A stretch of 64,000 nt of DNA. Source: Candidatus Latescibacterota bacterium. GTDB taxonomy: Bacteria; Latescibacterota; UBA2968; UBA8231. The notes beneath the pieces were generated by a model that ran no database searches, was not told the origin of the DNA, and was given only the letters and a program-made list of their open reading frames with translations. The stretch covers positions 6,030 to 70,029 of the forward strand of contig JAPYRN010000025.1 of assembly GCA_029941565.1 (NCBI GenBank), given 5' to 3'. Shown here in pieces: positions 25,177-35,133 of the stretch; positions within the stretch are counted from its first letter, which is position 1; each line of letters opens with the position of its first letter. The position numbers and the translations under genes are program-made.

Positions 25177-26259
25177 TCAACGGGCGATGGTGAAAGGCGA
25201 CATGTCCCGGCCAGGACTCCCCTCCATGATCCAACGCGCCACAACCTGGCCTGTATGGGGCCCCATGAGTATACCACTCTTGTAGTGACCGGTGGCAACG
25301 AAGAGTGTCCCAGTCTCCAGGGGGGTGATCACGGGGCGCCCTCGGCGCGGTTTTGGCCGCAGGCCGGCACGTAGCTGACGAAGTGATGGCGCCGGATCGA
25401 AGAGCCTTCCACTCCAGGCCATCAACTCCTGGCGGGCGGCATCCGTCGTCGTTAGATCGAAGCCGACCTCATCGACGGTGCCCCCAACGAGGGTGTCGTC
25501 GCCATCGGGGAGCGCGTGTAGTCCGCCCCAGCGTAGCACGTGCCGTACGTGCACCCCCGAAAAAAACCCGCTCTGGCCACGTATGGGACGCACCCGGACG
25601 GACGGAGCCAGCTCGCCGGTCCACGCCCCCGTGGTGACCACTGCGACATCGTAGCTCTCCGTGCATTCTCCCGAAGCCATCGCCAGATGGCAGTCGACGC
25701 CACCATCGAGTGGCCTGATTTCCGTAACCGTCGTCGACGTACGCACCACAGTACCTCGCTTCTGTGCGGCCACCCGTAGCGCCGTTCCGAGCCGCACGGG
25801 ATCCACACGCCCGTCCTGCGGGAATCGCGCGCCGCCCAACGCCGCTGTGGTCAGGCCAGGTTCGGCCTCACGCAGGGCTGATTCATCCAACCACTCCGCT
25901 TCAGCACCACGGCTGAGATTGAGGTCGACCCAGTCGCGGAGTGTGCCTGCCTCCCCTTCATCGAAGGCCAGATCGATGCCGCCCAGCGGGCGCCAACCCA
26001 CATCGATGCCGGTCTCCTGAAACAACAGCGCAGAAAGGGGCTCGTGCAGGGCGTGGCAGTCCCGATAGAAGCTCGAATACGCATCATCGGCGCCATACGC
26101 ATGGGTCAGTACGCCGAGAGAGGAACGGGAGGTAGGTGACGGTCCATCGTCGCTATCCATCAGGGTCACGGCAGCACCGGCATGCGCCAGGTAGTACGCC
26201 GTGGACTGACCGATGATGCCGGCGCCGATGACGACAACGCGCGGACCGGAGTCAGTCAC
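25177..26259 (-). CDS. FAD-dependent oxidoreductase (glycine oxidase ThiO/DAO family)
   Basis: IGAGIIG, VRPIRGQ, AGLRP and ATGHYKSGILMGP motifs. Confidence 0.88.
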   Translation of the reverse strand: MTDSGPRVVVIGAGIIGQSTAYYLAHAGAAVTLMDSDDGPSPTSRSSLGVLTHAYGADDAYSSFYRDCHALHEPLSALLFQETGIDVGWRPLGGIDLAFDEGEAGTLRDWVDLNLSRGAEAEWLDESALREAEPGLTTAALGGARFPQDGRVDPVRLGTALRVAAQKRGTVVRTSTTVTEIRPLDGGVDCHLAMASGECTESYDVAVVTTGAWTGELAPSVRVRPIRGQSGFFSGVHVRHVLRWGGLHALPDGDDTLVGGTVDEVGFDLTTTDAARQELMAWSGRLFDPAPSLRQLRAGLRPKPRRGRPVITPLETGTLFVATGHYKSGILMGPHTGQVVARWIMEGSPGRDMSPFTIAR

Positions 26260-27472
26260 GGCGCTGGCGATGTACCAGTGCCGGCAGGTGGGTTACCGGA
26301 CAGCCGCGGGCGCCGCGTACTGAATATCCCATGTCGCCGAGGATGCAGCCGATTTCCGACTCGAGGCGGAGGAGATACTCACGCTCCTCGCCGCTGAGCA
26401 CGCTGCGTGGTGGCCCCACGTCGAAACCCCGTACCGCAACGCCCGTCTTGAAGCCCTCAGGGAAATTCACACCGAGAAGCATCAGGTTGATCAATGGCAG
26501 GATACGATACTGCAATTCCCGCGCCCGTTGGAGATCCTCGGCACCCGCACGCTCATAGAGTTCGACGATGATCTCCGGAATGATCCCAGACGTGGCGATT
26601 GTGCCACCGTTGGCGCCCATGATGATCGACGGCAACAGATTCTCCTCACACCCATTGAGGACCACGTAGTCTGGTCGGTGCTGCCGCAACCGCTGCATGG
26701 TGTTGATGAGCCGAGGCAGATCACGACTCGAGTCCTTCGTCCCGAAGATGCGGTCGAAGGCGAGCAACTCCTCCATGATGTCGAGGGTGAGTTCCTGCGT
26801 GAACTGCGGAATGTTGTACAGCAGAATATCGAGTGGCGAATTGCGCGCAATCTCGGCGAAGTACTCGTAGAGACTCGCTTCGGAGATCTTGTAGTAGTAA
26901 GGTGGTACCAACGAGATGGCATCGGCGCCGATGTCGGTGTAGAACTCCGCCATCTGGATCACGTCCCGCACATTCGCCTCGCTGGCACCGGCAAGGATCG
27001 GCACGCGTCCCTGGTTGACATCGACGATGAGACGTACGACATCGCGACGCTCTTCTGAGGAGAGTCGCACGAACTCTCCGGTGGATCCATTTGGATAGAG
27101 TCCATGGATGCCGGCATCGATCAGCCAGCAGATGTAGCGCTCCATCTCCTTGTAGTTGATCGCACCCGAGGCATCATAGATGACGATGTTCGGCGTGAAA
27201 ATACCACTGAATCTGCGACTGCGTTCTGAGCTGCCCGGGGCAGCCGGCACCCCTGGCGTTGACACCGATCTTGACGTCGTCGCCGCTGGCGATCCCCCGG
27301 TGCGTGCAGGGGCGGCGCCGACATGGACGACCTGCACACCACGGTCCCGCAGAAAGTCGTGGGCAGATGGGGTGATCTTGGCACGGGGGCAGATCTCTAC
27401 CTGCTTGTCGGTATCACCGAGACGGCTGGCCAGCAGCTGTGCAGTCACTACGGGATCATCGATTCGGACCAT
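26252..27472 (-). CDS. DapA-family class I aldolase with an extra N-terminal BMC-associated domain (putative signature enzyme)
   Basis: NGSTGEF, LLYNIP and GTKDSS catalytic motifs; about 85 aa N-terminal extension containing KITPSAHDFLRDRGV. Confidence 0.88.
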   Translation of the reverse strand: MVRIDDPVVTAQLLASRLGDTDKQVEICPRAKITPSAHDFLRDRGVQVVHVGAAPARTGGSPAATTSRSVSTPGVPAAPGSSERSRRFSGIFTPNIVIYDASGAINYKEMERYICWLIDAGIHGLYPNGSTGEFVRLSSEERRDVVRLIVDVNQGRVPILAGASEANVRDVIQMAEFYTDIGADAISLVPPYYYKISEASLYEYFAEIARNSPLDILLYNIPQFTQELTLDIMEELLAFDRIFGTKDSSRDLPRLINTMQRLRQHRPDYVVLNGCEENLLPSIIMGANGGTIATSGIIPEIIVELYERAGAEDLQRARELQYRILPLINLMLLGVNFPEGFKTGVAVRGFDVGPPRSVLSGEEREYLLRLESEIGCILGDMGYSVRGARGCPVTHLPALVHRQRRD

Positions 27473-27492
27473 GACTCAGTCGGTGGGCTACC

Positions 27493-34259: not shown

Positions 34260-34541
34260 TCAGACGCCGTTTATGGGATGTTCGATGCGCACCTGGTCTA
34301 CGCGTCCAATGATCACGGCGTCCGCCGGAATCGTCTGGTCAAAAGCGTTGCATGCCTCACGGGAAACTTCGACGACGACGAGGTCGTCTTCGTCCATGGC
34401 TTGCCAGGTAACGCTGACCTCCGGTTCGCCTACGGGCTGCAGGTCGGCGTCTACGTCTTGGATGACATGTAATGTCTTGTCGGCATACGGTTCGATGGCA
34501 CGCGACAGAACGACGTGACCGAGCACGCGGGCAAGCTTCAT
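34260..34541 (-). CDS. BMC-P vertex protein (divergent)
   Basis: MKLARVLGHVV..SREA..ADAVIIGRVD. Confidence 0.85.
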   Translation of the reverse strand: MKLARVLGHVVLSRAIEPYADKTLHVIQDVDADLQPVGEPEVSVTWQAMDEDDLVVVEVSREACNAFDQTIPADAVIIGRVDQVRIEHPINGV

Positions 34542-34828
34542 GCTGCCAACCCCTCGTCTGCCGCGGTCGTGTCCGCCGAACAGGCATCGACGATGCCGAC
34601 GATGACGCTTCGTACGGGTGGAGATTCGAGACCCGTCACATCACTGCCGGCTGCCCCGGAATCGGAGACCAGTACCCGACACCCGGTACCGGCACCGACA
34701 GCATCGACTGCCAATTGTACACCACCGGCTGCGCCATCACCGTCATCGACAACCAGAATCTTCTTGCCGCCAAGTGCACAGTGGTGGGTCGTTGCTACGA
34801 CGGTACCTATGACCGTGCAAACCCTCAT
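34538..34828 (-). CDS. BMC-P vertex protein
   Basis: VIGTVVAT..LAVDAVGAGTG..VLV..IVGIVD. Confidence 0.92.
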   Translation of the reverse strand: MRVCTVIGTVVATTHHCALGGKKILVVDDGDGAAGGVQLAVDAVGAGTGCRVLVSDSGAAGSDVTGLESPPVRSVIVGIVDACSADTTAADEGLAA

Positions 34829-35133
34829 GCCGCCAGTGCCTCGACTGTCAGTCGCTGACCGAGGGCTGACACAGAATCGACGATTCCCACGATCAGCGCA
34901 TCGACGGATACATTGCGCATCTCGGGCGCTTGCCGGGCGGAACTGCCCTGAACGATGAGCACAAATTCACCCTCGCCGACGCCGACCGCATCGACGCAGA
35001 CCATATGCTTCCGGGTAAAGACCACCCCTTCAGCAGCAAGGCTTAGCAGTTCTACCAATAGCAGCTTCTTGCCATCAAGATTCTCCACCTTGGCAGCAGC
35101 GACGGCCTGACCCTTTACGCGTGCGAGAATCAA
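34825..35133 (-). CDS. BMC-P vertex protein
   Basis: ILARVKG..KLLLV..DAVGVGEGE..QGSSAR..DALIVGIVD; TTG start 4 bp after the ispH stop. Confidence 0.93.
   Translation of the reverse strand: MILARVKGQAVAAAKVENLDGKKLLLVELLSLAAEGVVFTRKHMVCVDAVGVGEGEFVLIVQGSSARQAPEMRNVSVDALIVGIVDSVSALGQRLTVEALAA

Follow-up and report, generated by a model that had tools for sequence, protein, structure and literature searches.

The subject of this analysis is a bacterial microcompartment (BMC) locus on the minus strand of a 64,000-nucleotide stretch of Candidatus Latescibacterota DNA (contig JAPYRN010000025.1; hereafter the window, with a G+C content of ~60%). It encodes shell proteins, a CoA-acylating aldehyde dehydrogenase (AldDH), the phosphotransacylase PduL and a lyase of the dihydrodipicolinate synthase/N-acetylneuraminate lyase (DHDPS/NAL) family. 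The locus is best described as a metabolosome resembling the microcompartment of Planctomycetes and Verrucomicrobia (PVM-like), to which a cassette of shell and cargo genes adds a second aldehyde generator, of class I. For the full reading, in which a PVM-like compartment would draw on two aldehyde-generating lyases and the DHDPS/NAL lyase would cleave a 2-keto-3-deoxy sugar acid, we estimate a probability of about 0.5.

The gene content of 26252-35232 agrees closely with what had been proposed from the letters of the DNA alone (the sequence-only reading): Pfam recovered ten shell genes in exactly the proposed classes, four BMC-P, two BMC-H, three two-domain and one four-domain. On the minus strand the order begins with IspH, followed by BMC-P 1 (34825-35232; EutN/CcmL, PF03319 E 2e-22, with an open reading frame (ORF) start that is probably over-extended), BMC-P 2 (34538-34828; PF03319 E 3e-18), BMC-P 3 (34260-34541; PF03319 E 2e-11), the two-domain shell protein T1 (33665-34222; two PF00936 stretches, E 6e-47), the single-domain BMC-H 1 (33378-33644; PF00936 E 3e-28), AldDH (31933-33363), BMC-P 4 (31599-31916; PF03319 E 4e-24) and PduL (30687-31361). 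After PduL come T2, a two-domain paralogue of T1 (30066-30635; two PF00936 stretches), BMC-H 2 (29746-30012; PF00936 E 7e-27), a 166-residue protein with no Pfam match (29242-29742), the two-domain T3, whose second domain is divergent (28653-29240; two PF00936 stretches), a four-domain shell protein of ~387 residues (27493-28656; four PF00936 stretches, E 2e-69) and the lyase (26252-27472; PF00701 E 1.4e-57). The true start of the four-domain gene is probably near 28656 rather than at the ORF edge, 28743. AldDH and PduL were also correctly named (NCBIfam PRK15398 at 642 bits, cut-off 403; PF06130 at E 1e-66). The nearest solved relatives of AldDH are acylating AldDHs from BMCs (PDB 5jfl and 4c3s), and on inspection the N-termini of both AldDH and PduL form an amphipathic helix resembling an encapsulation peptide. 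Clustered BMC-H/T and BMC-P genes are thus found together with a CoA-acylating AldDH and a phosphotransacylase, two of the features by which a metabolosome is recognized. The inventory was incomplete, as the operon extends past 26252 through two further genes, a D-amino-acid oxidase (DAO)-family flavoenzyme and then a second, DHDPS-like protein.

Scanning a single genome for each species yielded 79 loci, comprising 72 with full-length lyase orthologues (55-89% identical to the window lyase), two cut by contig ends and five with distant homologues; the records that bear the locus have labels such as Latescibacterota or Gemmatimonadota. In every locus with enough upstream sequence (68/68), T3 and the four-domain gene lie directly upstream of the lyase, a linkage that supports the sequence-only reading; the lyase is very probably part of the organelle. 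The 61 loci with at least 6.2 kb of upstream sequence fall into two forms. In the full form, as in the window, AldDH, PduL and the 166-residue protein are encoded upstream (45/61), and the split form consists of stand-alone trios of T3, four-domain protein and lyase that lack those three genes (16/61). An AldDH orthologue, at 57% identity, was found elsewhere in each of three split genomes. In the one that was inspected (G001), the AldDH gene is accompanied by shell genes, BMC-P and PduL, and also by acetate kinase and a class II aldolase, so that the main locus of this genome is PVM-like in composition.

The class II aldolase is the point on which the sequence-only reading has to be revised. 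It had listed the signature enzymes absent from the locus, and the ORF scan of 26252-35232 indeed found no diol dehydratase, ethanolamine ammonia-lyase, glycyl radical enzyme, class II aldolase, DeoC, kinase or alcohol dehydrogenase; a Pfam scan extended the absence of class II aldolase (PF00596) to 22912-36889. What holds for the locus does not hold for the likely parts list of the organelle, however, because the same genome (96.5% complete) encodes a PF00596 class II aldolase on another contig (C10), two genes from a BMC-H gene. This satellite (G000 contig C10, ~98.7-100.8 kb; L095:6691-8829) consists of the BMC-H, which carries an N-terminal extension, a membrane protein similar to LPG-synthase-TM, the aldolase and a TPR/PPIase gene. 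The aldolase ends in a linker and an amphipathic helix resembling an encapsulation peptide. Five of five other genomes with the full locus encode an orthologue that keeps this tail, and BMC-H stands beside it in three of the five short stretches taken from them. Together with the PVM-like main locus of the split genome, the satellite aldolase makes the lyase look more like an extra or alternative source of aldehyde for a PVM-like metabolosome than like the sole signature enzyme of a new BMC type.

Microcompartments of the PVM type act on fucose and rhamnose by way of lactaldehyde and have a class II aldolase as their signature enzyme. The system described here shares with them the AldDH and PduL core, a genomic class II aldolase with a C-terminal helix, and an acetate kinase in the genome; the kinase is not in the window locus, and its homologue lies on contig C15 (46% identity). 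It differs in placing the class II aldolase at a satellite instead of the main locus, in its host phyla, and in what the window locus adds, namely the class I lyase with its N-terminal domain, the four-domain shell protein, the Cys-rich 166-residue protein, the DAO-like enzyme and the second DHDPS-like protein. Satellites have a precedent in the HO type I and ACI metabolosomes, in which signature or core enzymes are encoded at satellite loci with shell genes, according to the parts of the BMC survey consulted (Sutter 2021, PMC8217296). The parallels in the present system are the class II aldolase with its BMC-H and the trio of T3, four-domain protein and lyase in 16 loci, although the enzymes and the phyla differ. 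A further lone BMC-domain gene of 161 residues lies on contig C1 of the genome (104024-104509, minus strand), away from both other loci.

The lyase carries its PF00701 domain at residues ~88-372, preceded by an N-terminal domain of ~55 residues and a variable linker and followed by a short, conserved C-terminal tail. Alignment to YagE and to PDB 3eb2 located the catalytic set that had been proposed: the GSTGE motif, Y219 (the Tyr of a YN.P motif) and the Schiff-base lysine K246. Across 27 orthologues no substitution occurs at G129-E133 or K246, and Y219 is kept in at least 90%. The enzyme falls below every NCBIfam cut-off, scoring 159 bits against 281 and 130 against 382 for two NanA models, about 152-153 bits against 206 for the DapA model TIGR00674, and sub-threshold values for the models of 2-keto-3-deoxygluconate (KDG) aldolase (119 bits) and of the 5-dehydro-4-deoxyglucarate dehydratase KdgD (95-115 bits). 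A quick maximum-likelihood tree of 35 rows, in which E. coli YagE, DapA and NanA were the only named references and five long-branch rows are unreliable, placed 11 BMC-linked lyases in one tight clade (SH-aLRT 100), which lies outside the clades of DapA and NanA and away from E. coli YagE. The sister of this clade is a single gene with no BMC association (L071). Identity as a true DapA can be rejected, as the lyase is below the cut-off and outside the DapA clade and the genome has a housekeeping copy on contig C5 (224 bits, cut-off 206); identity as an N-acetylneuraminate lyase can be rejected likewise, with both NanA cut-offs missed and a position outside the NanA clade. Judged by motifs, scores and this quick tree, the protein is thus an intact class I lyase that forms a subfamily by itself and is not a DHDPS.

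How such an enzyme might reach the shell is suggested by its N-terminus. The first ~55 residues are highly conserved in 72 of 72 full-length orthologues and give way to a linker that is variable and of low complexity. The 166-residue protein opens with the same domain (hhalign against the lyase N-domain, Prob 99%, E 2e-18); in the orthologue sequences a linker then leads into a conserved segment rich in Cys, and an amphipathic helix closes the C-terminus. This protein is present in 45/45 full loci and 0/16 split loci, and in three split genomes its only match was the N-domain of the lyase itself. When a hidden Markov model (HMM) of the domain was run over 69,961 six-frame segments, drawn from the genome of the window and four E. 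coli regions, it picked out only the lyase and the 166-residue gene, and then the N-terminus of E. coli EutT at E 0.01; weak NCBIfam matches of the domain to EutT (residues ~5-45) and to the eut protein family TIGR02536 agree with the HMM search. The isolated N-terminal 90 residues of the lyase had no Pfam match at E<=10. EutT and TIGR02536 resemble the locus proteins in these weak profile matches and in belonging to microcompartment loci; unlike the situation in EutT, the domain is fused here to a lyase and to a Cys-rich protein. The 166-residue protein may serve as an adaptor or as a metal or redox protein. A complex prediction for the four-domain protein, T3 and lyase residues 1-58 scored 0.00 and, run with no controls, speaks neither for nor against binding.

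A conserved module joined by a variable linker to an enzyme is the usual layout of cargo targeting in compartments, and this layout bears on the possibility that the lyase works in the cytosol, supplying or removing a metabolite there, and only shares its transcript with shell genes, leaving the class II aldolase as the only encapsulated source of aldehyde. In favour of this possibility, canonical helices of the encapsulation-peptide kind were seen only on the class II aldolase, AldDH, PduL and the 166-residue protein, and the lyase begins instead with a ~55-residue domain. However, that domain is retained in 72/72 orthologues in the arrangement of a targeting module, it is confined within the genome to two genes of the locus, and the lyase remains with two shell genes even where it is separated from all the other enzymes (16 loci). 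We therefore consider a cytosolic lyase quite unlikely.

The four-domain shell protein that accompanies the lyase is conserved at about 384 residues (median of 67 related loci). Its four PF00936 domains are unpermuted and only 31-42% identical to one another, which implies that the fusion is old. The single-chain AF2 model reached a pLDDT of 90.3 and a pTM of 0.89. Each half resembles known BMC-T proteins in that it matches two-domain proteins, among them PduT and a tandem BMC-H of synthetic origin, but here four PF00936 domains occur in one chain. No four-domain chain was present among the PDB sequence matches of this protein, and a phrase search of the literature found no paper describing one.

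Clues to the substrate come mainly from gene neighbourhoods. The nearest lyase relative outside BMC loci, L071, is flanked by genes for a GH2 glycosidase, a transporter and a sulfatase. A RhaM-like gene lies directly upstream of the BMC locus in 18 loci, which belong to one clade; in split loci two genes of the mandelate racemase/muconate lactonizing enzyme (MR/MLE) superfamily, of the acid-sugar dehydratase type, lie 4-8 kb downstream of the lyase; and the distant Firmicute homologues have an MR/MLE gene directly upstream. Within the window, a sugar cluster at 52614-61070 encodes GFO/IDH/MocA, MR/MLE, RhaM (PF05336, 101 bits), MBL-fold and MmgE/PrpD proteins, the first four of these, with RhaM at full length, falling within 52.6-58.9 kb. 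It is possible that this cluster represents a non-phosphorylative deoxy-sugar route that has no aldolase of its own. RhaA was not found in the 96.5% complete genome and FucI matched only below threshold, so that non-phosphorylative routes are favoured. The genome also shows marked paralogue expansions, with more than 40 MR/MLE matches, many PhyH dioxygenase matches and 15 DHDPS-family matches in all.

Taken together, these neighbourhoods favour a 2-keto-3-deoxy sugar acid as the substrate of the lyase, which is plausibly a keto-deoxy-acid aldolase. YagE, the aldolase covered by the sequence comparison, is among its two best solved relatives (135 bits). Like the sugar-acid aldolases of the DHDPS/NAL superfamily, to which E. 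coli YagE and YjhH and also FucH belong, it has a PF00701 fold with GSTGE, Tyr and Lys and a sugar-acid gene context. The lyase departs from YagE-type aldolases in its separate clade and in the added N-domain, linker and conserved C-terminal tail. Cleavage of 2-keto-3-deoxy-L-fuconate (L-KDF) by its aldolase, FucH, to pyruvate and L-lactaldehyde is an established reaction, as stated in the portion of the source consulted (PMC11199699). The sub-threshold KdgD matches raise the alternative that the lyase is a dehydratase or decarboxylase, of the KdgD or 2-keto-3-deoxyarabinonate (KDA) dehydratase type, which would make 2-oxoglutarate semialdehyde from a keto-deoxy acid for the compartment to oxidize with energy conservation; a sugar-acid context would fit this equally well. 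The NanA, DapA and KDG-aldolase models score higher, though, at 119-159 bits. AldDH, moreover, shares 57% identity with its counterpart in a PVM-like locus that contains a class II aldolase, and this suggests that the aldehyde is likewise small. Nor do we know of 2-oxoglutaryl-CoA as an established metabolite. We regard the dehydratase alternative as very improbable.

The two genes at the end of the operon raise a different alternative. The DAO-family FAD oxidoreductase (25177-26259, minus strand; PF01266 E 2e-60) is glycine-oxidase-like, and its gene overlaps the lyase stop by 8 nt; the divergent second DHDPS-like protein (DHDPS-like 2) of 313 residues (24148-25089, minus strand; PF00701 E 3e-7) starts 87 nt later. 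By a gap rule the flavoenzyme adjoins the lyase in 50 of 70 loci, and L005 and L022 carry it too. In the bacterial breakdown of hydroxyproline, a DAO-family dehydrogenase works together with a DHDPS-family deaminase. The DAO-like enzyme could accordingly oxidize an amino or imino acid, such as glycine, a 4-hydroxy amino acid or an imino acid similar to hydroxyproline, and one or both DHDPS-family proteins, acting as deaminase or aldolase, could then release 2-oxoglutarate semialdehyde, glyoxylate or a similar aldehyde for the compartment. Besides the gene arrangement, which recurs in ~50/70 loci, this possibility draws on the nearest solved relatives of the flavoenzyme, which are glycine oxidases (PDB, E 5e-25), and on its carboxylate-binding position: in the window and in 49/55 orthologues a Lys replaces the Arg of the GHYRNG motif, and a basic residue (K or R) is kept in 54/55.

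Nevertheless, the lyase trio occurs with no DAO gene beside it in all 16 split loci, and DHDPS-like 2 was not found in the three split genomes searched; the lyase module can thus do without either gene. A search of the 96.5% complete genome found no member of the proline-racemase family, terminal extensions are absent from both proteins, and the flavoenzyme scores below the cut-off of the ThiO model TIGR02352 (166 bits against 251). DHDPS-like 2 keeps the Schiff-base Lys, with the Lys motif in 50/50 orthologues, but its GxTGE motif is replaced. Its match to PDB 3e96 has an E-value of 3e-12, and its 955 database relatives at E<=1e-5, among 8000 scored, form a large, well-conserved family and are all generically named. 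In the quick tree it groups with paralogues from its own genome, and the closest of these lie in sugar-type neighbourhoods. On these grounds (no proline racemase, the split loci and the sugar contexts) the hydroxyproline version, in which DAO and a deaminase yield 2-oxoglutarate semialdehyde, was reduced to the rank of a rival. The two genes keep an amino-acid route open, although we think it unlikely.

Returning to the PVM-like compartment with two aldehyde sources, we infer the encapsulation, the substrate, the aldehyde and the pore role of the shell proteins from the gene content, catalytic motifs, synteny, shared N-domain and sugar-type neighbourhoods set out above, and propose the following sequence of events. 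Inside a pentamer-rich shell, AldDH and PduL would convert a short hydroxy-aldehyde to its acyl-CoA and then to the acyl-phosphate. The aldehyde would most likely be L-lactaldehyde, or else glycolaldehyde. A first supply may come from the satellite class II aldolase with its C-terminal helix, and a second from the lyase, acting as a Schiff-base aldolase on a non-phosphorylated 2-keto-3-deoxy sugar acid to give pyruvate and the aldehyde; candidate substrates are of the L-KDF or 2-keto-3-deoxy-L-rhamnonate (L-KDR) type, or a pentonate. The EutT-N-like domain would bring the lyase to the shell, and T3 and the four-domain protein would work with it, possibly as the entry route for the acid. More speculatively, the trio might be a portable cargo-plus-gate cassette that retrofits a PVM-like compartment with a class I aldolase, using a new kind of folded targeting domain (EutT-N-like) instead of the usual short helix, a hitherto undescribed four-domain shell tile as dedicated entry pore and, in the full loci, the 166-residue protein as adaptor or redox partner. 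We consider this extension doubtful, if possible; were it true, non-phosphorylated deoxy-sugar acids would be burnt with substrate-level phosphorylation.

Several observations weigh against a sugar-acid aldolase in a PVM-like compartment. By score the lyase is approximately equidistant from YagE, DapA and NanA and shows no specific grouping with YagE, so that its sequence does not fix the substrate; moreover, DHDPS-family members also include dehydratases, decarboxylases and deaminases. Because MR/MLE genes are so abundant in the genome, finding them nearby counts for little, and both adjacencies, that of RhaM and that of MR/MLE, derive in each case from a single narrow clade in which the neighbours are 86-100% identical. 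The similarity of the N-domain to EutT is marginal (E 0.003-0.01), and we know of no function for the N-terminal segment of EutT. The flavoenzyme and second DHDPS-like gene that follow the lyase in 50/70 loci, with translational coupling in the window, recall amino and imino acid pathways. Finally, the recycling of NAD+ is unexplained if the compartment has no encapsulated alcohol dehydrogenase: none was found, and three iron-containing alcohol dehydrogenase genes elsewhere in the genome show no terminal extension by eye. The keto-deoxy sugar-acid part of the sequence-only reading is accordingly supported in so far as the lyase is intact, is not DapA and has sugar-type neighbourhoods, but not as an assignment of substrate.

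In the literature searched, no microcompartment was linked to DHDPS, PF00701, neuraminate lyase or 2-keto-3-deoxy compounds, although the supplementary tables of BMC catalogues, which lay outside the search, may list the locus under a label of unknown function. The main text of the 2021 survey, as far as it was consulted, describes the ACI, FRAG, HO, MIC and MUF types as having no obvious signature enzyme (Sutter 2021, PMC8217296), and the portions consulted of that survey and of its predecessor make no mention of DHDPS, pfam00701 or hydroxyproline (Sutter 2021, PMC8217296; Axen 2014, PMC4207490). Papers on Latescibacteria and Poribacteria describe shell genes or a fucose/rhamnose compartment and, in the parts consulted, no DHDPS. 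Among the matches listed, 20 of 24 rows, representing 14 studies, place the organism's DNA in seawater, marine, hydrothermal-vent or vent-plume metagenomes. In four seawater metatranscriptome runs, contigs reach 18-26 of the 30 bins into which the locus was divided, with a single 146-nt skip in one run; this is only a weak hint of expression, since DNA can be present in RNA libraries.

Which aldehyde-generating enzymes are able to define or extend a metabolosome is a central open question for compartments of unknown function. If a class I Schiff-base aldolase is indeed cargo, it would represent a new enzyme class for compartments and would tie them to sugar-acid pathways of the non-phosphorylative kind, in which marine heterotrophs show an expansion. 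Given where the organism's DNA occurs, the pathway may play a part in how deoxy-sugar polymers of algae are turned over. A test case for the co-evolution of cargo and shell permeability is offered by the strict tie between the lyase and two shell genes, as well as by the N-domain that it shares with a second locus protein and by the four-domain protein, and the N-domain, T3 and the four-domain protein could serve in compartment engineering.

Some minor features of the locus and its surroundings complete the description. Two ORFs within the locus, 31346-31633 (95 residues) and 30877-31512 (211 residues), were dismissed as spurious, since they have no family match and overlap real genes. The IspH ORF (35138-36889, minus strand, 583 residues), which is found upstream of BMC-P in many full loci, has its LytB domain from residue ~205 onwards, and the long N-terminal part is either an over-extension of the ORF or a genuine extension. 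Adjoining the locus on the plus strand, 37184-38770 encodes a protein with a C-terminal domain like that of the N,N-dimethylformamidase beta-subunit. In an iron cluster at 18685-22897 of the window, FeoB is encoded in two parts, by an N-terminal and a C-terminal gene, and there are two repressors of the DtxR type that carry FeoA domains. In a related genome (L041:13550-15441) the operon is followed by Thoeris-like defence genes, encoding ThsA with a Macro domain and ThsB with a TIR domain, and by a helix-turn-helix gene.

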